From the IMG/VR virus record IMGVR_UViG_3300027971_000002: 32,280 bases of DNA, one strand, 5' to 3'. The DNA is from an uncultured virus (IMG/VR IMGVR_UViG_3300027971_000002) (lineage: Duplodnaviria; Heunggongvirae; Uroviricota; Caudoviricetes). The notes under the pieces were generated by a model. The model was not told the origin of the DNA and did no database searches. It saw nothing but the letters and a program-made list of their open reading frames with translations. Positions within the stretch are counted from its first letter, which is position 1. Each line of letters begins with the position of its first letter. Positions 131 to 31,564 of this stretch are shown here, piece by piece. The translations under genes were made by a program, and so were the position numbers.

Positions 131-847
131 TTATATTGTATCTCTCTTTGTTGTATCTACTACCCCTAATTTTAATGTTTTTACCTCATGAGAACCTAAG
201 CTCTCTTCTTTTTCATTAACAGCGTCTCTGTACCAGTCTGTCCATTCTCCAACAGTATTTAGTTTTTGTGCGGCAACTCCATAGGACGTATTCGCATCTA
301 ATCTCGTTCTATTTGGGTCTTGGTATTCAACAATTTTAATAGTTGTCCCATTTAAGTGCGACAACGATATAGGAATAACGGTGGCAACTGGGGTTCCTGC
401 TTTAATTATAACTCGTTTATTTGCAATCTTTGCTTTAATAGCTAAAGGCAAGGGGTGGTCATAAAAAGAAGTACTAATCACAGACGACATAGTCTCAAAC
501 TCATTACTAAAGTAATTTACTGGGTTAATGATGAGTGTACTAACCGTTTTATCTGTTCTAAAAATTAAACCAGTTTCTAAACTTATAGAAGACTGACCTC
601 TACCAGAGTAAGCGCCTTCTGGACTAAATATTTGAACATGGTTTGGAGTTTGGTCGTTTACACCATCCCAAATGAACTCAATATCCTTTGAACAAGACAT
701 GCTCCAGCCAATTACATTTGACTGTGTTACTGGAAAGCACCTGTAAGCATGGTTTTCTGACGTCGCATCCATCCAGTCTCTTTTAATTGACATAGGCTGA
801 ATGTCAAACAAAGACCCTTGTGTTTTTTCAACTGAGATGTTAAACAT
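131..847 (-). CDS. DUF6065-like protein
   Basis: 238 aa with RDWMD...HAYRCFP...N..GW and a C-terminal GTPVATVIP motif; overlaps the upstream stop by 1 nt. Confidence 0.65.
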   Translation of the reverse strand: MFNISVEKTQGSLFDIQPMSIKRDWMDATSENHAYRCFPVTQSNVIGWSMSCSKDIEFIWDGVNDQTPNHVQIFSPEGAYSGRGQSSISLETGLIFRTDKTVSTLIINPVNYFSNEFETMSSVISTSFYDHPLPLAIKAKIANKRVIIKAGTPVATVIPISLSHLNGTTIKIVEYQDPNRTRLDANTSYGVAAQKLNTVGEWTDWYRDAVNEKEESLGSHEVKTLKLGVVDTTKRDTI

Positions 848-1503
848 TAATCTGCATCTGCGCTATACATCTCTGGAGTGTGAAACTTTTTGCTGTAATC
901 AAGCATGGTCACAATAGAGTATTTAGTCCCAGAGGTTACTGGCATTGCTTGGTGGGGATACATAAAGTTTGATGGAAAGATGAACAGGTCTCCAGCTTCT
1001 GCTTTAACTTTTAAGTTTTGTAATCTAAAGTAAAGCTCTCCACCTTCGTAGTCATCATTTGGGTATGCAACTAAAGAGAGGGTACAGTTATAAGAAAACC
1101 CATGGTCGTGATGCTCCATAAAGTGTTGGCCTGGGCCGTACTTAATAAAGTTAAAGGCTTCCCAGTACTTTAGGTTGTTAATGTTATACATCTTTGAGTA
1201 GTCTTGAACCGCAGGCAGTTTAACGTCGTATAGGTCTTGCCACAAAGCTTGAAGGTTTAAACTAACCTGACTTTTGTCGTTTTCTATATCCGTCTTCTTA
1301 AACTTAAAGTCGTTGCAATCTCTATACTCTGGCATAAGCTGCTTATACCCGACATATGCGGGTTGCCAGGCGTACCCAGTGGTATCCCCTTCTGGCTTAA
1401 GGTTAGCCTCAATTCGGCCTATAACATCAATATCCTTATTGATTACGCCCTTATAGCAAAAAATGCCATTGCCTAAATCAACTTTTTCTGTCCATGTTTG
1501 CAT
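847..1503 (-). CDS. 2OG-Fe(II) oxygenase, prolyl 4-hydroxylase-like
   Basis: KYGPGQHFMEHHDH (HxD), YPNDDYEGGEL, GDLFIFPS, and YPHQAMPVTSGTKY (distal His and 2OG-binding Lys). Confidence 0.9.
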   Translation of the reverse strand: MQTWTEKVDLGNGIFCYKGVINKDIDVIGRIEANLKPEGDTTGYAWQPAYVGYKQLMPEYRDCNDFKFKKTDIENDKSQVSLNLQALWQDLYDVKLPAVQDYSKMYNINNLKYWEAFNFIKYGPGQHFMEHHDHGFSYNCTLSLVAYPNDDYEGGELYFRLQNLKVKAEAGDLFIFPSNFMYPHQAMPVTSGTKYSIVTMLDYSKKFHTPEMYSADAD

Positions 1504-1512
1504 TTGTAGTCC

Positions 1513-2280
1513 TTATCTGTATTCCCGCATTGACCAAACACTATTTTTGTATACCCCGCCGTCAGGTTGGCGGTAAAACCTCATGTTAGTAACCATTTTA
1601 TCATATATCGTAGACTGGTCTAAAATCTCTATTTTGTGTTCCCAATCTTCTCTTTTAAAAGGAAGAACCTGAATATATGGGGTTCCTGCTGGTAATGTGC
1701 CTTCCCAGCCTTCTGTAATAAAGAAGGGAAAGCTACCAAGTAAATGAACTTTGTCAGAGTCCACAACCCCAGTAGTGTTTAAAAATGGTAAGTCAAATCT
1801 ATTCATTGGGGTCATAAACAGTGCGCTGTATCCTTCTGGAAGCTCTAACCCCCAAGGAGAACTCCAAGCAAAATGGCTTTGGTAATAACCCTTTGGGTGT
1901 TCAAACTGCGGCATTGGGGGGCGTTGAGTACAAAAATCTTTGTACTTAGGGTCATCAATTTTTACATTTATGACGCCTTGACTATTTTTATAAAAGATTA
2001 AATCGCAGGGTGTTTTAAAAAGATACCCAGTTGTAAAGGCGTCCAGAATAGCGGGGCAAGCTTTCCACGTAGGAATCTTTCCATAGTCGTCGGTCGTACC
2101 CTTTTTAGGAAAAGGACAAACTTCTTTGGGCGCTTTGTAGTATTCCCCGTCTGGGTCCTTATAGAACCTATCCGCACTTTTATACCAATTTGGAATTTCG
2201 GTTTGTGTTGGGACGGGCTTAGAAACATCTTCTTTTTTTATCCAAGGCCTAAAAGGTCTAAATATGGCAACCAAAGACAT
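1513..2280 (-). CDS. Conserved phage protein, DUF6065-related with possible dUTPase-like fold
   Basis: TWKACPAILDAFTTGY, TGVVDSD, FPFF and GTPYIQVLPFKRE; same motif layout as 131-847. Confidence 0.55.
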   Translation of the reverse strand: MSLVAIFRPFRPWIKKEDVSKPVPTQTEIPNWYKSADRFYKDPDGEYYKAPKEVCPFPKKGTTDDYGKIPTWKACPAILDAFTTGYLFKTPCDLIFYKNSQGVINVKIDDPKYKDFCTQRPPMPQFEHPKGYYQSHFAWSSPWGLELPEGYSALFMTPMNRFDLPFLNTTGVVDSDKVHLLGSFPFFITEGWEGTLPAGTPYIQVLPFKREDWEHKIEILDQSTIYDKMVTNMRFYRQPDGGVYKNSVWSMREYR

Positions 2281-2987
2281 TACTTGTGCCCTAACTCATT
2301 AATGTCTGTCATAACAACAACGCAATATTTTGTTCCTGACACCATGGGCAGAGAGGCGTGTTCGTAAATGTAGTTTGAGGGAAATACTGCAATGTCTCCT
2401 ACTTTTGGTTTATAGATTAAATTATCAAGTCTTGGAAACTTTATATCTCCACCCTCATAATCATCATTAATATATATAACGGCAGATACTGTGCAATTAT
2501 AAGCAGGGCCGTGGTCTGCGTGAATATTAAAGTGGGTCCCACTTCCCTCATACTTTACAAAGTTAAAAGCTTCATAATAAACTACGTTAATGCCCCAGTA
2601 TTTAGCATAATCATCTATGCAGTATTTAAGCTTTTGATAAATTTCTTCATGCAAGTCTATCAGTTCTGCATTTGATTCGTCTCTGAGCCCAAGCTGTTCT
2701 TTTTTATATTTAAAGTCTACACAGTCTCTTGCTTTTTTAATTGGGGTATTAGAGTTTGTAACTCTAGCCTCTGACCATTTATATTTGCCATCTGTTGATA
2801 GGTTAGACTCAAGGGTGTCAATGTATCTTGCAGCATCTTCACTAGAAAAAGTATTTTGGTAAACGTTTAGGCCCAAACCTAAGTTTTTAACACTTACCTT
2901 ATTGTCTAACGCCCTTTCAGGGGTCCTATTTGATGCGGTCTCTGACCTATCCTTTGTAAACCAAATATTTTCGTTTTCGTTATGCAT
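2280..2987 (-). CDS. 2OG-Fe(II) oxygenase, prolyl 4-hydroxylase-like
   Basis: HFNIHADH (HxD), YINDDYEGGDIKF, GDIAVFPSNY, YEHASLPMVSGTKY; a clear paralog of 847-1503. Confidence 0.9.
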   Translation of the reverse strand: MHNENENIWFTKDRSETASNRTPERALDNKVSVKNLGLGLNVYQNTFSSEDAARYIDTLESNLSTDGKYKWSEARVTNSNTPIKKARDCVDFKYKKEQLGLRDESNAELIDLHEEIYQKLKYCIDDYAKYWGINVVYYEAFNFVKYEGSGTHFNIHADHGPAYNCTVSAVIYINDDYEGGDIKFPRLDNLIYKPKVGDIAVFPSNYIYEHASLPMVSGTKYCVVVMTDINELGHK

Positions 2988-11477: not shown

Positions 11478-12548
11478 TTAGTTGGTTTCTGCAATAACTA
11501 CAGCCTGGTCAGTGATTAGACCAAGTCCGAAGATTGAGTACCAAGCAAGTGCGTGCTCACGACCGAAGTCTAGAATACCGCCATCGCGGAGTTCTACTGG
11601 AAGTGAGATTGCGTGACCGAATGCGTTATCTCCGATGAAGATAGATGCATAGCGGTCTGAACCACCATTACCTGTCTTTGTAGCAGGTGTGATGTATCCA
11701 CCACCAGCAGTAACTGTTGGGTTAGCAACTGTTGTGTCTGTTGTGTATGAAGTACCAGCACCACCAGCAACCTTTAGGACCTGTGTGGTTTCGATGAATA
11801 CGCAGTCGTACAAACGACCGATTTCACCGAGCATGAAGTTACCAGGTGCTGCGTACTTGGTTACTTCGATGAATTCCGGATTGTCACGTAGCTTACGTGA
11901 CTGGTGTGGGTGAACGAAAGCAACATATGTCTCACCAAGGCGAGGGATGTTCTTTGTTGCTAGGCTCTCTACTGCATCCTTCACAGTGTGAGGTGTCATG
12001 TAGTAAGTGCCTGTCATAGCAGCACGGTTTGCTGCGGTTGTTCCGTCAGCGTACCAAGCATTAACTGCTGTCTGGCCTGAGCGGTCTTCACCGTAGATTA
12101 CTGATGTTGCTGCATAGAGTGTGTCGCGTGACAACTGGTCAAGATAGATTGCCATGTTACGACCAAGAAGACGTGAGGCTGAAGCCATTACGTCATCGAA
12201 TGAAGCGTTCAATAGAAGCTCAGATACAGCAAGAGCATAACCATGCTCAGTTACTGTGATTGAGAACTGTTGCGCTGTAAGAGCGTTTGTCTGCATACGT
12301 ACACCTTCGACAAGTGCTGAAGCAAAGCCGAGGTTGTTGTAACGCATGAAGTTGATTTGAAGACCAGGTGCAACACCTAGTTCAGTCTTCTTTACTGCAA
12401 ACTGCTCAAAGCGAAGAATAGGCATTGCCTGGAACAAGATTTCCTTGGACCAAATTGTCTGAATCGCTTGAGTTAGCTGTGTATTTGTACCTGAGTACGC
12501 TGTAGGTGCTGCGGCAAGATTGCCGGTACCCGTAATGCTTGATGCCAT
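11478..12548 (-). CDS. Major capsid protein (N4-gp56-like family)
   Basis: 356 aa after the scaffold gene; YVAFVHPHQ..LR, GEIGRLYDCVFIET and DFGREHALAWY motifs; AAGGAG RBS. Confidence 0.9.
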   Translation of the reverse strand: MASSITGTGNLAAAPTAYSGTNTQLTQAIQTIWSKEILFQAMPILRFEQFAVKKTELGVAPGLQINFMRYNNLGFASALVEGVRMQTNALTAQQFSITVTEHGYALAVSELLLNASFDDVMASASRLLGRNMAIYLDQLSRDTLYAATSVIYGEDRSGQTAVNAWYADGTTAANRAAMTGTYYMTPHTVKDAVESLATKNIPRLGETYVAFVHPHQSRKLRDNPEFIEVTKYAAPGNFMLGEIGRLYDCVFIETTQVLKVAGGAGTSYTTDTTVANPTVTAGGGYITPATKTGNGGSDRYASIFIGDNAFGHAISLPVELRDGGILDFGREHALAWYSIFGLGLITDQAVVIAETN

Positions 12549-13484: not shown

Positions 13485-15206
13485 TTACTTTTCATACTCT
13501 TCCGGCACTCTCCGTTGTGGGATTTTTGTACCGTAAGCTTCTGTTACAAGGCGCTGTCGTATTCCTTGCTCGCCCATCTGTGCAAACATTTGAGCCTCGT
13601 CAAGGATAGGGCTAGGCGCTCCAGGATTTCCTGGCATAGGTTGACCTTCTGGACCTTGCATTGGTTGAGGTGGCGCACCATCTGGGCCCGGAAGCATTCC
13701 AGTTAATTGAGCAATTTCTTGCTGAATCTGACCCTTAACAAGGTTAAGAGCTCCATCGGCCTTAGCGTCATCAATAAGTTCTTGACGAATTTCCATAAGT
13801 TTTTCATCAGGGAATTCTTCGCCTAGTGAACGAAGTGCGCCTTCCTTAGACTCTAGGCCAAGAGAAAGCATTGTTTGAACTTCGTTAAGCGCAATTAGCT
13901 TGTCAAGCGGTAGCGGAGGCGGGAAGTGTACATATGAGCGGAAGCTGATTGGGTCGTTCAAATCTAAGACTTCAACTTGTCCCTCTTTAAGAGGAGCAAA
14001 ACGTGTACCAGGATTAGCCGCCATACTTTCAGGCTCTTTAACCGCAAGGCTGATAAGAATAAGTTCGTTTACGCGCTCTAGCCCGTGTGCGTATTGAATG
14101 ACTTTTTGGTGATAACGGTTCATCAAAGGCTGGAACATAATTGCTAGTGCTACACCTGAGGTGTTAGATACAGGCATTGCCTGACCAAGAGCAGTTTCAG
14201 GAACACCAGTCATCTCGTGCATTGACTTTTTCATCATTGCAAGGAAGTCCATAGCACCCTTAAGGCCCTGTGCTCCACCTTCAAGGTTTTCTACACGAGC
14301 ATCCTTGGGTAGTCCGCCCCATACTTTATTAGCGCCCTTTTCTAATTGCGACGCTTTAGCACCGATAATAACCGTAACTGGCGCTGCGTGGTAGTTAACG
14401 ATGTCGGCAATATCTGTAGCCGTTTCATTATACGTACGGTTAATTGGAATAATGTCATTGCAATCAGATAGGCCCCAAGGGCTACCAGAAATGCGGACAT
14501 TAGGAATATGAATAATGGGAATAACACCAAGCGGGTTAGGGCGAGAGTCAATGAGTTCATCGTTAATGTACTCCTCAATAGCGTCATCAGTTAAAATTTC
14601 TGTGTAAGTAAACACTTGACGTGTTCCTTCAAGCGATGTACCCCAAAAACGATACTTAAGCTTAAAACGAATTAAACGTTCACGGTCGTGAGGGTGAAAT
14701 TCTGGAAACGCAAATGATGAGTTAAGAGGCAAGATACGAACACGGCCTGGGTGAACTCGACCAGCTGGGTCTTGATAAGCCTCTTCGTAAGCAACTTTAA
14801 TAAAGCAATCGCCTGAGACTCCGCCCTGCTGTCCCATTTCCCAAAGTACTGTTGCTTTGTTGTTATCTACTTCCCAAACTCTTTCTAGCAAGTCAGGAAC
14901 GATAGCCTCTGTCTGCTTAGGGCTACGGAATTGGACGCCCTTACCAAATGTAAAGTTAAGAATAAAGTCTGTAAAAGCACGGTAGTAGTTAAGAACCATC
15001 TGTGATTCGCCTACTTGACGGCGGTATGAATAATGATGACCAAGATACATGGCCCAGTTAAGTGAATAACGGTTTAAACGAGGGCCGTGAACTTCAAATT
15101 CTTCATCCGCTAGTTCTACAAGACCTAGTGGAGAAATAGAAATAGTTAAGTCAGAAGACGCAGCTCTATACGATGGAGGTGAGAAATCTAGACCGCTACC
15201 ACTCAC
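13485..15206 (-). CDS. Portal protein (SPP1 gp6-like)
   Basis: 573 aa; NPLGVIPIIHIPN...WGLSD, SNTSGVAL motifs; position between terminase and scaffold; AGAGG RBS with GTG start. Confidence 0.9.
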   Translation of the reverse strand: MSGSGLDFSPPSYRAASSDLTISISPLGLVELADEEFEVHGPRLNRYSLNWAMYLGHHYSYRRQVGESQMVLNYYRAFTDFILNFTFGKGVQFRSPKQTEAIVPDLLERVWEVDNNKATVLWEMGQQGGVSGDCFIKVAYEEAYQDPAGRVHPGRVRILPLNSSFAFPEFHPHDRERLIRFKLKYRFWGTSLEGTRQVFTYTEILTDDAIEEYINDELIDSRPNPLGVIPIIHIPNVRISGSPWGLSDCNDIIPINRTYNETATDIADIVNYHAAPVTVIIGAKASQLEKGANKVWGGLPKDARVENLEGGAQGLKGAMDFLAMMKKSMHEMTGVPETALGQAMPVSNTSGVALAIMFQPLMNRYHQKVIQYAHGLERVNELILISLAVKEPESMAANPGTRFAPLKEGQVEVLDLNDPISFRSYVHFPPPLPLDKLIALNEVQTMLSLGLESKEGALRSLGEEFPDEKLMEIRQELIDDAKADGALNLVKGQIQQEIAQLTGMLPGPDGAPPQPMQGPEGQPMPGNPGAPSPILDEAQMFAQMGEQGIRQRLVTEAYGTKIPQRRVPEEYEK

Positions 15207-16119: not shown

Positions 16120-17691
16120 TTATCTATAAAAAGGTGAAGAAGATACTTCTACCGAAGGCATAGTTAAATCCATAGTTAAACAGACAGCAATGGCCAAACT
16201 ATCCGCGTAGTCATCGTGGGCGTGAGCTTCAGCGGGTGCGTGAGCTAAGAAGTTTGGGCCTTGGAACTTTGTCTCAAGGTCGGTCATCTGCTGGTAAAAA
16301 CGCTTCCAAGTTCTAAGGCGTCTGGTCTTAGCGTGTGCAGGCCAACCAACCATGCGACGGTCAATCAAGGCCTTAAGGTGCTTCCAGCGTTTAGACTGCT
16401 CTTGTTGACTACTGCCTATCGAATGAACCTCTGCTCCTGGAAGTAAAAGCTTAAGGCGTTGGGCTACCGCATCACCGACTCCGTTAGCATCTACACCTAC
16501 CGCTAAAACATCGTAAGAGCCAAGAAAGTTTACAATTTGGAAATACTGGTCTTCCCAGTCATCACCCTGAATTTCTAACCAGTTAAGTACTCGGTGGTCG
16601 TAGTAACCAAACTCATCTGGCCTATCCCAATCAACCCACACAACAGTTACAACTGTTGAGTCCATCTTACGTGCGGGGTCAATCCCAACAACAACTGGAG
16701 TTCTGTGCCATGCCCTAACAGTTTCTTGAGATGTATCGCCAAGCTCATCCATAATTGTGGAGGTAACGAACATTCCGCGTTCTAGTAGCCACTTGCAGTT
16801 GTATGACATCTGGAACTCATCAGAATCTTCGCCAACACGAAGCATTTCTTTTTTAATGAACTTACCGTAGTTAAGGTTTACCTTAGCTACATCTTTGTAG
16901 TCCCATTGGAAGTGGTTCTGTCTTGAAGCTCTGCCTGTCTGTCTACGCTTGTTTAGTTGAATAGAGCGATAAAAGTTATTCTTGTGCGTAGTTGGCGTGC
17001 CTGTCTTTACCATCGTCCCTGAGTAATACGCAAGCATAGGAGAAATTGATTTAGAGACTACAAAGTCATCTGCTTCTTGGCACTCGTCAATAACAATAAG
17101 GTGAAAAGATTTAGATTCAATCTTTGCGCGTGGGTTAGCGGTCATCATCATTAGGCTACTGCCTGAGTTCTTAAGCTTAATTTGGCGTGTCACACCTGGG
17201 ACTTTGCCAAGGGAGTCATCAATCTCTGGGTCGCCTAAAATCTCTAACGCACGCTCAGAAGTTAAACGGTTTACCGTACGACCAAAAAGAGTTTCAACCT
17301 GACCTTCTACTGGAGCAAACATTCCAATCCAGATGCCGTCTTTAAACTGACCTAATAAATCTGGGTACATTTTTGCAAGTCTAGGTAGCAACACCATTAA
17401 TGTGGCTACTGTGTTAGCAATTGTTTCTGATTTTCCTGACTGGCGTGCAGCAAGCGCTGTAACTTCTTCACCGTCATTAATGATTACAGACTCAATAATG
17501 CGACGAGCAAGCGGTAGTTGATATGCGTGTAGCTCGTGCCCCACTAAGGCGTTCATAAACTGGATTGTTTTATCAACCATCTTGCGTACAAATTCTTTAG
17601 AGAGTTCGTCTAACTCTTCTTCCTCTTCTTCAATGAGTTCTTCTTCATCTTCTAAGAGTTCTTCTTCGTCTAAAAATTCTAACTCGCTCAT
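16120..17691 (-). CDS. terL: Terminase large subunit
   Basis: Walker A (ARQSGKSE), Walker B (LIVIDE), GTP coupling motif, nuclease acidic motifs GIDPA and HDDYADS. Confidence 0.92.
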   Translation of the reverse strand: MSELEFLDEEELLEDEEELIEEEEEELDELSKEFVRKMVDKTIQFMNALVGHELHAYQLPLARRIIESVIINDGEEVTALAARQSGKSETIANTVATLMVLLPRLAKMYPDLLGQFKDGIWIGMFAPVEGQVETLFGRTVNRLTSERALEILGDPEIDDSLGKVPGVTRQIKLKNSGSSLMMMTANPRAKIESKSFHLIVIDECQEADDFVVSKSISPMLAYYSGTMVKTGTPTTHKNNFYRSIQLNKRRQTGRASRQNHFQWDYKDVAKVNLNYGKFIKKEMLRVGEDSDEFQMSYNCKWLLERGMFVTSTIMDELGDTSQETVRAWHRTPVVVGIDPARKMDSTVVTVVWVDWDRPDEFGYYDHRVLNWLEIQGDDWEDQYFQIVNFLGSYDVLAVGVDANGVGDAVAQRLKLLLPGAEVHSIGSSQQEQSKRWKHLKALIDRRMVGWPAHAKTRRLRTWKRFYQQMTDLETKFQGPNFLAHAPAEAHAHDDYADSLAIAVCLTMDLTMPSVEVSSSPFYR

Positions 17692-17812: not shown

Positions 17813-18058
17813 TTATCCGAGTTTTGCAGTAGTTCTAGTGTGCAACTCGTGTACAACAGCGTGAAGGGCCTCTGCCCCTGTTAAAGCTTCTTCTAAAACT
17901 GCAACATCACGGGTTCTAGAGTAAACGCTCATACAACGACCTATTTCGTAGGTAGCCTGTTCAATCCACATCTCAAGTTCTGTTGTATGTATCTTTCTTA
18001 CGCGTTTTACTACTTTTTCTGAAAAAGGCTTATCCCAAGGGCTTTTCTTTTTAAACAC
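17813..18058 (-). CDS. Hypothetical helical protein (start probably GTG at 18058)
   Basis: ORF overlapping the upstream stop, immediately before terL; no terminase small subunit motif recognised. Confidence 0.65.
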   Translation of the reverse strand: MFKKKSPWDKPFSEKVVKRVRKIHTTELEMWIEQATYEIGRCMSVYSRTRDVAVLEEALTGAEALHAVVHELHTRTTAKLG

Positions 18059-19390: not shown

Positions 19391-19681
19391 TTATTTCTTC
19401 TTTGGAGCCTTTTTAGCCACAGAGGCTTCTACTGCAAGTTTCTTAGTAATTTCTGCAAGGCCAATAGTTGCTACTCGGCCAAACGCTGGGTCCTTCTTAT
19501 TGATATAGCGAAGTGCTACTGGGACCAAAGATGCCCATAGAGCGTTGGCTACTAGTAGCCACTCGCCTGAACTAAAGTCCAACGGTGTTGCTGCTCCGCT
19601 TGTTTGCATGACAATCATTACTGCGCCGATAACTTGGCCAAGCAAGTTACGTGCATAGGATTCAATCATTGCTTTATTCAT
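19391..19681 (-). CDS. Holin-like membrane protein
   Basis: Two hydrophobic segments, LRYINKKDPAFG motif and a Lys-rich C-terminus. Confidence 0.6.
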   Translation of the reverse strand: MNKAMIESYARNLLGQVIGAVMIVMQTSGAATPLDFSSGEWLLVANALWASLVPVALRYINKKDPAFGRVATIGLAEITKKLAVEASVAKKAPKKK

Positions 19682-19926
19682 TTTTCTCCTTCTTCTACGT
19701 GCTGGTCGAAACGACCCTCAAGTCTTGACAATGATACACGAACTTCAACCATGTCCACGGCAATTCTATTAATTGCGTCTTTTAGCGATGAGCCACCATT
19801 GGGCTTAAGCTCTGACAGGTAATGTTTAATTGTCCAACGAATACCTACAATTATCGCGGCGCCTACGCCTAATAACGTAGATGATAAAGCTGCCCAGTCT
19901 TGTACGCTCAAGGTGTATCCGTTCAA
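19678..19926 (-). CDS. Single-TM membrane protein of the type found next to actinophage holins
   Basis: N-terminal TM followed by ELKPNGGSSLKDAINRI and a coiled coil; start codon uncertain. Confidence 0.65.
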   Translation of the reverse strand: MNGYTLSVQDWAALSSTLLGVGAAIIVGIRWTIKHYLSELKPNGGSSLKDAINRIAVDMVEVRVSLSRLEGRFDQHVEEGEK

Positions 19927-22069: not shown

Positions 22070-22709
22070 CGCCGCCGCCAGGAGTTGTGCCACCAAATTG
22101 ACCAGTAGAGCCGATACCAGCAACGTACTCAACGCCTTGACGAATAGGTGCAGGAGGTTTTCCGGCGTTATCATCAGCACGGTCACGACCAACGCGAGCC
22201 GCATAATTTGAATGTCGTCCAGCTGCTTCTGCTTGGCTTAACTCTCCTGAGTCAACCATTGCTTGAATTTTCTTAACTGTCATGCGAGGACCTGAAGACC
22301 CACCACGCTTTGGTGGTGGTGGAGCAAACGCAGGGTTCCAAGAGGCTTTTGCGTTGTCAAGGTCAGCAGATTGAGCGTGTGGGTTAGCTTTACCAAAACC
22401 TGTTAAATGTTCAGAGGCACGTCCACGACTCCAGTCTTGCTGTTGCACAGTAGCGTCAATACGGCTTGACTCACGATTAAACTTATCTACTTCGCCTGTT
22501 TGCTGACGACCAAAATCTAAAGCGCTATTTTGATTTGCAAGAAAAGCACCGTGAGACATTTCATCACGACGCATCTGCATGTACTGTCGCATTTGACGGC
22601 TACTCATGCCACCCATACCGCCGCGACGGCTACCGCCAAAATATCTTCCAGCAGCGTTATCGCCTACACCTGAATTAAGGTTCATGCTTCCCTCCGGGTA
22701 TGATGGCAT
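22050..22709 (-). CDS. Gly-rich, probably disordered hypothetical protein
   Basis: 219-aa ORF with low-complexity G/R/M/Q composition. Confidence 0.7.
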   Translation of the reverse strand: MPSYPEGSMNLNSGVGDNAAGRYFGGSRRGGMGGMSSRQMRQYMQMRRDEMSHGAFLANQNSALDFGRQQTGEVDKFNRESSRIDATVQQQDWSRGRASEHLTGFGKANPHAQSADLDNAKASWNPAFAPPPPKRGGSSGPRMTVKKIQAMVDSGELSQAEAAGRHSNYAARVGRDRADDNAGKPPAPIRQGVEYVAGIGSTGQFGGTTPGGGVGTPIK

Positions 22710-26647: not shown

Positions 26648-26838
26648 TTTTTTCCTCGCTTTCCATAAGCGTAGCCGCCCTGTGCGTAATACTCTTCAGT
26701 AGACATTGTTCTAGCAAGTTGGTAGCGACGCCTTAAATGAACAGTATCGTCAGGGTACTCGTGTTCCCATTTCTGGGCTTTTGGCTTTTCATCACCCAAA
26801 GTTCTGTACTCATCAAACTGGTCAGAGTCTGGGTTCAC
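26644..26838 (-). CDS. Hypothetical protein beginning MNPDSDQF
   Basis: GTGA overlaps with both neighbours. Confidence 0.65.
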   Translation of the reverse strand: MNPDSDQFDEYRTLGDEKPKAQKWEHEYPDDTVHLRRRYQLARTMSTEEYYAQGGYAYGKRGKK

Positions 26839-27131
26839 TTCTCGTTTTCTTTCTTTCCTGCGCGACGCTTGTTTTCTTTAGCAGTGTTCTTACTACGAGA
26901 AATAGCGCGAAGGTTTCCCTTTGAATCATTGTTATGGTTATTGTCTTTGTGGTCCACAGTAGTGTCCTTAGACTTAATCTTGCCGTTCTTAGACTCGTAG
27001 TCGGCACGAGCTTTATTCTTAGAGGTAGTGTGCCACTTACCATCTTTACCTTTGGTTTTGTAAACGTAAATAGGGCGTCCGCCATTAGCATCAGAACCTT
27101 TATAAGGTCCAAACTTTTTTGTCTCAGCCAT
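26835..27131 (-). CDS. HNH-like protein (start revised to MAETKK)
   Basis: TVDHKDNNHNNDSKGNLRAISRSKN; GGAGGA RBS. Confidence 0.7.
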   Translation of the reverse strand: MAETKKFGPYKGSDANGGRPIYVYKTKGKDGKWHTTSKNKARADYESKNGKIKSKDTTVDHKDNNHNNDSKGNLRAISRSKNTAKENKRRAGKKENEK

Positions 27132-27351
27132 TATTGTCCTCCTCATGGTGCTCTTTGTGTGCTGCTGCAGCCGATTGACGATTAGGAAATACTTGGTCTT
27201 CTACAGTAGATGATGTTCTAGTTTTCTTATCAAATTTTTGATATTTGTACTTTCCAGACCAATTACAACCTTCACCTTGACACTCAGCAATAACCCCGCC
27301 GTTAGTGCGCTCAGTGTAAAGCTTATGGCCTTTTGGCACTAACAATCCCAC
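27124..27351 (-). CDS. Hypothetical protein, possibly Zn-binding
   Basis: CQGEGCNW...AAAHKEHH. Confidence 0.6.
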   Translation of the reverse strand: MGLLVPKGHKLYTERTNGGVIAECQGEGCNWSGKYKYQKFDKKTRTSSTVEDQVFPNRQSAAAAHKEHHEEDNNG

Positions 27352-28846: not shown

Positions 28847-29142
28847 TATTCAGTCAATCCTAAGAAACGCGAAGCTTTTGCAATGCTGTTATGAAATGTC
28901 TGTAGACGGCTTCCTGAATCCTCTTGAGCGGTAGCAGGAGCGCTCTTTGCATCCATACGACGGTCCACTTCTTTGTGAAGAGTCTTAGGGTCATAGGAAA
29001 CGGCAAAATCAACAGGGTCTGTAGAGTTAACTATCTTTGAGCGTTCTTCTCGCCACGCTTTACCGGGGAATGAGACCACTGTTCTATCTGCTGCTGGTCG
29101 TTTTACAATTCCCTTAGCAATAGGTCCAAACTTCTCAGCCAT
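28846..29142 (-). CDS. Hypothetical protein
   Basis: 98-aa ORF, AAGGA RBS, TAATG coupling. Confidence 0.7.
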   Translation of the reverse strand: MAEKFGPIAKGIVKRPAADRTVVSFPGKAWREERSKIVNSTDPVDFAVSYDPKTLHKEVDRRMDAKSAPATAQEDSGSRLQTFHNSIAKASRFLGLTE

Positions 29143-29870
29143 TAGGTATCCTTTAGTGGTCGAGGTTGAATGTAACCTTCGCGGGCGGCAGTTCCTGTTG
29201 CATCACGATGCAGACGGTCTTCCATGCCAATACCTACGTGAGCTGGGTGAATATCAAACTCAAAGACACCAGAACGTGGATGCCAAGTCATGCTACTTGT
29301 ATTACCTTCGTGTGTTTGTTCAACACGATGGCGTCCGCCTCCTGCTTTACCAACTTTAGTTTTTGTAACTTTTGTACTTACTGCAGCATCAGTTGTTCGT
29401 ACAGCTCCGCCTCTTACTTTTCCACCCTTAGTTAAGCAAGATGCACCTGTGCACTGAACCATAACTGCTTGTCTTGACTCAGCACGACGCTTTGTCTCTG
29501 GCACATGCTCTGTTGGAACAATTTCACCTTTACCTGGGCCAATTGATTTTGAGCAGTGCAAACACTTTCCTGGATAACGATTAACAGGAACACCAGCTGC
29601 ACGTGCACCCTTAGCAGTAGCAAAATCAATAGTGGTGCCGTACTCTTCTAAATCACGAGATGGGTCGTAACCTTCTCCGTTTGGACCAGTAATGCGACCA
29701 ATGCGTGAACCACTTTGCAATGCAGCATCAATTGCTGATGCGCGACGAGGAGCCATAGACTCTGGCATGTCTGGGTCATCAGAGTGGTCAATTGGTTGAC
29801 GCGTAGGTGGCTTTGGCTTACGCGTAGGAGCAGCAGCCTTACGTGTAGGTTTTCTAGGTGCTCTTGGCAT
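29142..29870 (-). CDS. Hypothetical protein with basic N-terminus, Zn ribbon and degenerate GNAT-like C-terminus
   Basis: NRYPGKCLHC...CTGASC; FDIHPAHVGIGMEDRL resembles GNAT motif A; GGGAG RBS. Confidence 0.65.
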   Translation of the reverse strand: MPRAPRKPTRKAAAPTRKPKPPTRQPIDHSDDPDMPESMAPRRASAIDAALQSGSRIGRITGPNGEGYDPSRDLEEYGTTIDFATAKGARAAGVPVNRYPGKCLHCSKSIGPGKGEIVPTEHVPETKRRAESRQAVMVQCTGASCLTKGGKVRGGAVRTTDAAVSTKVTKTKVGKAGGGRHRVEQTHEGNTSSMTWHPRSGVFEFDIHPAHVGIGMEDRLHRDATGTAAREGYIQPRPLKDT

Positions 29871-29884
29871 TCTTCTATTCTCCC

Positions 29885-30118
29885 TTATAAACCTTTGTAA
29901 TTCTCACTTAAATCAGCGTATTCTTTCACCGCAATAGCCATCGCTGCTTGAACCTCTAGATACAACTTAGGATGGCGTTCAAGTAGATGTTGGAGTATCC
30001 CCCGGATACTTCTCACATTTGCTAAACATCCATTATTCATATCTAACATAATCAAACGCGCACAATTGCCAACGCTGTCGGAGCGGTCATCTTGCTCAGT
30101 GAGCCACGATACAAACAT
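29885..30118 (-). CDS. Small helical protein, possibly YozE-like (start revised to MFVSWL)
   Basis: F..WL..Q.DR.D.VG..AR.I..D pattern. Confidence 0.55.
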   Translation of the reverse strand: MFVSWLTEQDDRSDSVGNCARLIMLDMNNGCLANVRSIRGILQHLLERHPKLYLEVQAAMAIAVKEYADLSENYKGL

Positions 30119-30131
30119 GGCTATATGGTAG

Positions 30132-30713
30132 TTAGAAACCTCTTCCGTGACACTCCATAACCAATTCAATTGAAGACTTACCTCGGGAGAAGTGAGCAGC
30201 AATCTTAGGTGCCATCCCGTCAATAAGTATCTGATGCATCCCAAGGCGCTTGATGCGTTTCTTCAAGATAGCACCATCTTTGTTCTCCTCGGCAATCATT
30301 CCCATGTACAGAATGGTCCAAACGACACAAGCCTCAAAGTCATCCTTATAGTTCCACGACATCTCTTTAATCATCTCAACAACTGGCTTTGTAGCTGGGT
30401 AGGTAGCATCTGTCGTAGTTGCGTCGTAGATACGCACAAAATCAGCATAGATAGCCTCAGGGGCACGCAAAGCCGTCCAGCCTTTCACAATGCCAAAATA
30501 CCACTCGTCCGTTGGAAACTTCATCCACTTGTCCTTAAAGCCAAGTACATAGATGCACCAGTCATCAAAGCTTCCTGTGCCAAAATACAACCTGACCTTG
30601 TCGTCATCTGATGTAAAGGTAGCAACGTGTTGTTTGAGTGGAGCCGTCTTGCTTGGCCCAAAATTCTTTTCAATTTGAGCAAGCGCGGTATCTAATGCTT
30701 CTTGTCGATTCAT
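30132..30713 (-). CDS. Hypothetical protein with a RecA-like N-terminal helix fused to a conserved uncharacterised domain
   Basis: N-terminus MNRQEALDTALAQIEKNFG; body with G.FDDWCIY, GMIAEENK..AILKKRIKRLGMHQIL; no Walker motifs. Confidence 0.75.
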   Translation of the reverse strand: MNRQEALDTALAQIEKNFGPSKTAPLKQHVATFTSDDDKVRLYFGTGSFDDWCIYVLGFKDKWMKFPTDEWYFGIVKGWTALRAPEAIYADFVRIYDATTTDATYPATKPVVEMIKEMSWNYKDDFEACVVWTILYMGMIAEENKDGAILKKRIKRLGMHQILIDGMAPKIAAHFSRGKSSIELVMECHGRGF

Positions 30714-30835
30714 TTACAAAGCGTAACACTTAGGCTACTGACTGCAATTTCTGCAACCCCTCAAAAAAATTTCATACCCCCTCGGCTACTGTGCTGAATA
30801 TGCGGTGTCACCTACCCCCGTTGCCTGGCCTCGGC

Positions 30836-30851
30836 TGTGAGATTGGTCACA
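30836..30851. promoter_or_regulatory. Crp/GlxR-type binding site
   Basis: TGTGA-GATTGG-TCACA, perfect consensus. Confidence 0.7.
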
Positions 30852-30870
30852 CTTAAGGGTGGGGGTCTGC

Positions 30871-30886
30871 TGTGAGTCGCGTCACA
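30871..30886. promoter_or_regulatory. Crp/GlxR-type binding site
   Basis: TGTGA-GTCGCG-TCACA, perfect consensus. Confidence 0.7.
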
Positions 30887-30892
30887 TTACGG

Positions 30893-30930
30893 CGAGTGGT
30901 CTAGGTTTGCTCCCCGAGTGGTTGTACCTT
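30893..30930 (+). promoter_or_regulatory. Early-type promoter, copy 1
   Basis: CGAGTGGTCTAGGTTTGC-N14-TACCTT; the 18-mer recurs at 31567. Confidence 0.7.
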
Positions 30931-30975
30931 TGTCTTATTGGTAATCGTTACCAATACCTAACAAGGGGGCTAACC

Positions 30976-31460: not shown

Positions 31461-31548
31461 GCTGTCCGCGTTTGCGGTCCGCGAATTGTTTGTGTTGGCC
31501 CACCCGCCCCGTTTATATATAAGGGAGTATAAGGGAGGGAGAGAGTTG

Positions 31549-31564
31549 TGTGATGCGTATCACA
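31549..31564. promoter_or_regulatory. Crp/GlxR-type binding site
   Basis: TGTGA-TGCGTA-TCACA, perfect consensus. Confidence 0.7.

Follow-up and report, generated by a model that had tools for sequence, protein, structure and literature searches.

A RecA-like N-terminal helix on a DUF7004 protein of an uncultured tailed phage, and its possible docking on RecA

The window, by which the whole analysed stretch of 32,280 nt is meant, is a 32-kb part of a tailed-phage genome; its G+C content is 44.7%, and its genes are coded mostly on the minus strand. Genes for the major capsid protein (11478-12548), portal (13485-15206), and large terminase (16120-17691) were recognized, and tail fibres and a CHAP endolysin are also encoded there. 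The phages of the Streptomyces phage BRock group are the closest cultured ones, with amino-acid identity of 55% for the terminase and 70% for the capsid protein. The host is likely actinobacterial, because the nearest cultured phages are phages of Streptomyces and WhiB is encoded on other viral contigs with DUF7004. An actinobacterial host had been guessed in an earlier note on this DNA, made from the sequence alone; the guess fits both the nearest phages and the helix described below, which among the actinobacterial RecAs compared is closest to that of the acI group (Nanopelagicales). More than 600 stretches of viral contigs (loci L206-L285 among them) encode terminases 87-100% identical to that of the window, which places the phage in a very abundant lineage. 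Two tandem gene pairs, each consisting of a 2OG-Fe(II) oxygenase beside a DUF6065/phrog_7084 protein, were also found in the window at 131-2987 (-).

The gene under study (30132..30713, minus strand) is complete according to the ORF list and the sequence, with the stop codon at 30132-30134, and codes for a protein of 193 aa. It is the first gene of a leftward block and adjoins a divergent intergenic region of 260 bp. Neither a DNA match nor a tblastn match to it was found among GenBank phages. Its codons 2-19 (30657..30710, minus strand) code for a RecA-like amphipathic helix, NRQEALDTALAQIEKNFG, recognized by a significant match to RecA N-termini. The linker PSKTAPL, codons 20-26 (30636..30656, minus strand), was delimited from alignments and stands where RecA has GKGS and a beta-strand; its length varies among relatives. 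Residues 27-193 (30135..30635, minus strand) form the DUF7004 domain, with three beta-strands followed by a helical bundle according to PF22539 and the AF2 secondary structure. Residues 1-26, encoded at 30636-30713 (-), read MNRQEALDTALAQIEKNFGPSKTAPL, as the earlier note had written them. The AF2 model, computed with 145 sequences, has a mean pLDDT of 94.3 and consists of a helix at residues 3-18, strands at 26-34, 39-45, and 53-58, and then seven helices. The lowest pLDDT is that of the linker, with means of 71 and 78 in blocks of 10 residues. L7, L11, I14, and F18 lie on one face of the N-terminal helix.

A TAA stop is located immediately 5' of the ATG, and an upstream stop was found 0-8 codons before the ATG in all 10 of the relatives that carry the helix and have a complete 5' end. 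Read by eye, the first in-frame ATG, GTG, or TTG after the annotated ATG is codon 43, and a start there would delete the first beta-strand and the beginning of the Pfam domain. Because no alternative start preserves the DUF7004 domain, the helix must be translated. The possibility raised in the earlier note, that the true start lies downstream of the helix, is contradicted by the lack of a usable start before codon 43. Parts of the gene, the helix codons among them, are found on contigs from RNA libraries of four studies (freshwater, river, and lake samples); these contigs are assembled and such libraries may hold DNA, and they are evidence of neither transcription nor the start site.

The divergent intergenic control region (30714..30975), delimited from the sequence, contains blocks conserved in four related loci. 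Three perfect TGTGA-N6-TCACA palindromes, against 0.06 expected, were found in the window at 30836-30851, 30871-30886, and 31549-31564; all three are in the two intergenic regions adjoining the gene, and related loci have kept the first two. The motif is the CRP/FNR-type consensus, and a regulator of the host or the phage may use the palindromes as operators. No Shine-Dalgarno-like sequence was identified at 30714-30760 (-), just before the ATG. The same stretch contains CAGTAGCC twice, conserved in relatives, and then a hexamer resembling TAnnnT at a distance of 6 nt from the ATG. Leaderless transcripts are common in actinobacteria, and the transcript of this gene may be leaderless. A consensus scan of the upstream region revealed no sigma-70-type promoter or terminator, and SOS-box-like sites upstream were no more frequent than by chance. 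The intergenic stretch at about 31474-31542 recurs three times in the complete genome of a 98-kb relative, G451 (17958-17998, 19628-19699, and 22486-22512), with 75-93% identity, and resembles a regulatory element that is repeated in the early region.

On the other side, the gene is directly followed by a small ORF that is conserved and codes for about 77 aa (window about 29885-30118, minus strand; also at L003:6942-7175), and after it comes a gene for a 242-aa protein (29142-29870), which is conserved and belongs to no known family. The order of these three genes is kept in loci L001, L002, and L003, and the products of the two neighbours are possible partners of the helix-DUF7004 protein.

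In Pfam (hmmscan, E<=10), the 193-aa protein matched DUF7004 (PF22539) alone, with E 8.7e-45 and a score of 152.9 bits, well above the gathering cut-off of 27; its residues 38-193 correspond to model positions 4-155 of 155. The RecA model (PF00154) gave no match at this threshold, and the remainder of the protein is thus without RecA ATPase motifs, as the earlier note had claimed.

The RecA likeness of the N-terminus was analysed by several searches. When the N-terminal 39 aa alone were compared with 177,635 PDB sequences, 13 distinct matches were obtained at E<=10; all 13 were RecA, and all were placed at RecA N-termini. The best single-copy RecA had an E of 0.18 in this search, the lower E-values coming from artificial multi-RecA fusion chains. 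A profile of 10 such extensions gave 28 PDB matches at E<=10, the top 22 of which were without exception RecA N-termini (single-copy E 2.4e-6 to 6e-3); DnaA, with an E of 0.18, was the first match other than RecA. In hhalign, the family alignment matched 49 RecAs, a set selected with a pattern derived from the phage helices, with a probability of 91.6 and an E of 8e-7. Residue 2 pairs with the start of the RecA helix in this alignment, which is carried by the helix and loses confidence beyond it. By BLASTP, 14 of 18 residues are identical and 17 of 18 positive to the RecA of a Nanopelagicaceae chromosome (E 2e-6). A word-indexed search of residues 1-40 against longer proteins in 5.8 billion sequences returned nine candidates, none at E<=10; an 18-residue match cannot be scored against a database of that size.

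The columns R3, A6, A10, L11, I14, E15, and F18 are invariant or nearly so in the 10 extensions. Residues A6, A10, L11, I14, E15, and F18 pair with A20, A24, L25, I28, E29, and F32, which are invariant in the alignment of the 49 pattern-selected RecAs. Position 5 of the helix is E (or T, A, S), never the K of RecA, and none of 12 phage helices matches the RecA consensus there. The RecA-like part is restricted to residues 2-19, and the GKGS-hMxh strand of RecA is replaced by PSKTAPLK. The earlier note had marked all of residues 1-26; the likeness stands for the helix at residues 2-19 and fails for the strand.

A chance likeness of an ordinary amphipathic helix could be suspected, as the match is only 18 residues long and the best single-copy RecA reached an E of only 0.18 with the single sequence. 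This explanation was rejected as extremely improbable: it is contradicted by the E-values of the profile, hhalign, and pairwise BLASTP comparisons and by the top 22 profile matches, all of them RecA at the correct position. The similarity, the significance of which the earlier note had left to be checked, is thus significant by three methods. By these comparisons, the phage helix is confirmed as a homologue of the N-terminal oligomerisation helix of RecA. This helix is present in the protein, and the PF00154 ATPase core with Walker A and B is absent from it. The view of the earlier note that a RecA helix was grafted onto an unrelated protein agrees with this, the rest of the protein being DUF7004.

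A pattern made from the helix motif was used to scan 185,579 species genomes. It matched 80 loci, and 79 of them have a Walker-A GKT just downstream and are therefore RecA; the remaining one runs off the contig end. Among the best loci, freshwater acI actinobacteria (Planktophila, Nanopelagicaceae) are prominent, with 14 of 18 identities, a score that is equalled in unrelated phyla and exceeded in two Lachnospiraceae genomes (15 of 18). Actinobacterial RecAs that had not been chosen by the pattern are identical to the window helix in 5 to 12 of 18 positions, against 14 for the acI reference.

RecA is also encoded in the phage lineage. It was identified in Streptomyces phage BRock (E 1.6e-36, L095:1279-2310, minus strand) and, above the Pfam cut-off, in two of five long relatives found via the terminase (87-93% identity), namely the complete 98-kb G451 (L286:1258-2319, minus strand) and the fragment G452 (L287:1243-2364, minus strand). 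It is absent from the nearest record, the 21-kb fragment G001. The N-termini of the BRock, G451, and G452 RecAs are divergent, and BLASTP of the window helix against the phage-lineage and BRock RecAs gave no alignment at the helix. Because of this divergence, the graft copies a cellular RecA and not the one of the phage lineage; judged from the alignments, the helix is a near-copy from a cellular, actinobacterial RecA of acI type, and the phage-lineage RecAs are known from the relatives and not from the window. DUF7004 is missing from all five long terminase-related contigs, and the helix-DUF7004 gene is therefore an accessory of a sublineage.

These data bear on the idea that the protein regulates or assists the recombinase of the phage itself rather than the RecA of the host. 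The occurrence of RecA in BRock and in two of the five long contigs speaks for such a target. However, the N-termini of the phage RecAs do not align to the helix, as opposed to 14 of 18 identities with cellular RecA, and DUF7004 is encoded on none of the five contigs, so that the genes for RecA and DUF7004 are unlinked there. A target among the phage's own recombinases is thus considered quite unlikely.

The DUF7004 family comprises 547 homologues at E<=0.001 in the word-indexed search, or 378 representatives at 50% identity. Most members are about 160 aa long and begin at the equivalent of K27, i.e., without the helix; whether homologues of the C-terminal domain lack the helix had been posed as a check in the earlier note, and most of them do. 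The domain motif could be located in 155 of 265 proteins, and 11 of these 155 have a RecA-like helix (P0001-P0006, P0011, P0015, P0016, P0018, and P0019). The helix is truncated in P0023 and degenerate in P0009, P0017, and P0020. In the maximum-likelihood tree of 59 domain sequences, all helix-bearing rows group in a single 35-row clade (support 92/91), and none of the remaining 24 rows has the helix. Helix-less proteins are nested inside the 35-row clade, and the branches starred in the tree require at least six state changes; the tree is rooted at midpoint only, and some of the losses may be miscalled gene starts on short contigs. One gain of the helix followed by several losses would be the simplest reading of this tree. 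Because close relatives are without the helix and the tree needs at least six state changes, DUF7004 can do its work, whatever that may be, without the helix. It is nevertheless kept in homologues that are only about 50-60% identical overall. In distant pairs, pS of helix codons 2-19 is 0.69-0.99 versus pN of 0.08-0.14, and pN of the DUF7004 domain is 0.17-0.19. The helix codons are under purifying selection that is no weaker than that on the domain.

In the RecA filament, the N-terminal helix of each subunit holds on to the ATPase core of the next one, and the beta-strand after the helix likewise packs on the neighbouring subunit. The helix is described in PMC4066776 as a major determinant of RecA self-interaction. 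Docking of the phage helix on RecA was evaluated by co-folding the complete 193-aa protein with the Nanopelagicaceae RecA, residues 42-360, with alignments used for both chains. Three runs gave ipSAE of 0.01, 0.54, and 0.63 (median 0.54), graded by the tool as weak support with no interface reported, and the best of three controls reached 0.00. The pLDDT of the partner was 82 or higher, and agreement between the runs covers 11% or more of the contacts. When the tool was calibrated, 116 of 157 solved complexes and 2 of 215 mismatched pairs passed the mark, and scores at or below 0.60 include only 18 of the 157 solved complexes together with both passing mismatches. The co-fold score may also come from solved RecA-RecA interfaces that the model has memorized. 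Column by column, conservation in the phage helices and in the pattern-selected RecAs correlated with a rho of 0.80, a value that is circular because the RecA set had been picked with a pattern derived from the phage helices. An unbiased repeat with 18 actinobacterial RecAs and 18 columns gave a rho of 0.30 (p 0.23), which is not significant. The concordance of conservation was therefore dropped as support for binding. Two further features speak against docking: the strand after the RecA helix is not kept in the phage proteins, and the helix was repeatedly lost.

The best explanation assumes a protein of two parts, with the first 19 residues as a near-copy of the RecA helix, then a short variable linker and the DUF7004 domain. 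The helix would dock in the groove of the RecA core that normally takes the helix of the neighbouring subunit. In E. coli numbering, this groove is made up of residues 89, 124, 127-128, 131-132, and 135-138 (PMC4364692). The protein would in this way bind free RecA, or the single end of the filament at which the groove is exposed. Subunit addition would be blocked at that end, which would cap the filament and damp SOS and host recombination. A second consequence, compatible with capping, would be that DUF7004 becomes tethered to RecA or to RecA-coated DNA. Docking of the helix on the RecA core, with either capping of filaments or tethering of DUF7004 to them, is given about an even chance. That RecA is bound, where it is bound, and what follows downstream are all inferred from the features described above.

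The helix could instead be a fossil or a structural element, i.e., the 5' end of recA was captured by gene fusion and its product now serves only the folding or self-association of DUF7004, with no contact to RecA. The repeated loss in close relatives, the poorly conserved strand, the co-fold run with a score of 0.01, and conservation that does not track RecA in the unbiased set all agree with that, as does the fairly high pLDDT of the helix in the monomer model. On the other hand, the RecA consensus residues are held under purifying selection down to about 50% overall identity, the 24 rows outside the clade and most family members fold without such a helix, and the co-fold controls scored 0.00. 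A helix without RecA contact is for these reasons held to be unlikely.

PHROGs contain no family for the 193-aa protein. Foldseek of the AF2 model against PDB gave no match at E<=0.001, and the best Z in VIA-align against 48,161 chains was 4.8, with no recognisable fold relative. The BFVD fold search likewise gave no match at E<=0.001; a protein of Streptomyces phage BillNye was at rank 7, with TMq 0.48 and E 0.22. No usable match was obtained in ESM Atlas. DUF7004 was not found in any of five cellular genomes, and in 401 genomes of one phylum no match was above the cut-off and one was sub-threshold. In the literature, the term "DUF7004" was found in a single paper, on Enterococcus typing. As the C-terminal part of fusions, the domain occurs with DnaE-type polymerase (P0160), Dam methylase (P0201 and P0207), and an ASCH domain (P0208). 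In locus L012 its gene is located directly after a Dam methylase gene, and in L009 it adjoins genes for a Cas4-like nuclease, helicase, primase, and nucleotide-modification protein. Gene context points to a tie of DUF7004 to DNA metabolism. In the 193-aa protein, the domain is not basic overall (pI 6.5); its conserved residues include D50, D69, E142, and K152/R153/K155.

From this context, the helix might serve mainly as an address tag. It would carry an activity of DUF7004 to RecA filaments or, should the domain bind DNA, seed or load RecA at particular DNA sites as a mediator would. The evidence for the helix is the same as for docking with capping, and DUF7004 is the old and widespread part, recurring as the C-terminal partner of DNA enzymes and adjoining Dam methylase (L012) and replication-type genes (L009). 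Nevertheless, no fold relative of DUF7004 was found, the domain is not basic, and what hints at a function is its gene context. The present data do not separate delivery from capping, and delivery as the main role is considered rather improbable, though it ranks first among the rival readings. Since RecA is encoded in the lineage and DUF7004 is tied to DNA-metabolism genes, two points that the earlier note had not anticipated, the possible roles are wider than simple inhibition.

The protein has likenesses to several known systems and differs from each of them. With the cellular RecA helix at the start of PF00154, it shares 14 of 18 residues in the case of the Nanopelagicaceae RecA, the hydrophobic face L-L-I-F, the location at the extreme N-terminus, and a flexible segment that follows; unlike in cellular RecA, the helix leads into DUF7004 and not into the ATPase core, and GKGS with the beta-strand is replaced. 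Synthetic peptides of the RecA N-terminal helix were reportedly described as RecA inhibitors by Cline, Holt and Singleton in 2007. The phage helix would resemble these peptides as a free helix copy competing for the subunit interface, but it is part of a naturally occurring phage protein, in which it is joined to a domain of 167 residues, and the peptides are designed. In BRCA2, the BRC repeats mimic the oligomerisation motif of Rad51 (FxxA) and can both block and load filaments. As in them, the polymerisation motif of a recombinase is copied onto a protein that is not a recombinase; unlike the BRC repeats, which are eukaryotic, use FxxA, and have no sequence relation to it, the phage protein has a single copy of a bacterial helix.

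Phage P1 Ref is an HNH nuclease that depends on RecA filaments, and it is not known to carry a copy of the RecA helix. As a phage protein that brings its own domain to RecA filaments, Ref would be a model for the address-tag reading; the protein studied here has DUF7004 and no HNH match in Pfam, and is in this respect not Ref-like. The HNH_3 match in the window belongs to a separate gene (26835-27146) and not to the helix-DUF7004 gene. DinI and PsiB are protein modulators of RecA. RecX is another such modulator, according to PMC5766188, and DprA is modelled in PMC4066776 as a cap that uses the self-assembly surface of RecA. Action on the RecA filament, as proposed for the phage protein, would be shared with these four. 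At E<=10 in Pfam, the 193-aa protein had no match to RecX or another Pfam-defined regulator of RecA, and none was found in PHROGs. To our knowledge, neither RecX, DinI, PsiB, nor DprA has been described as carrying a copy of the RecA N-terminal helix. Searches of the literature found no description of a natural protein with such a copy.

RecA controls recombination, SOS induction, prophage induction, and mutagenesis. If RecA is indeed targeted by a copy of its own docking helix, this would be a new route by which phages handle the DNA-damage system of the host, and a bacterial parallel to the mimicry of Rad51 by BRC repeats. Tentatively, and with more doubt than confidence, it may further be proposed that a phage with its own RecA of divergent N-terminus uses a copy of the host-RecA helix and a DNA-metabolism domain to cap, sequester, or redirect the host RecA selectively while sparing its own recombinase. 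If true, the protein would be the counterpart in a bacterial virus of the design of BRCA2, with BRC repeats plus a DNA-binding domain, and a natural, host-specific modulator of RecA and SOS. The helix would then also be a ready-made template for inhibitors of RecA and SOS, already tested by evolution. For the DUF7004 family, which has hundreds of members and no known role, the helix is a first functional handle, on a family that gene context ties to DNA metabolism.
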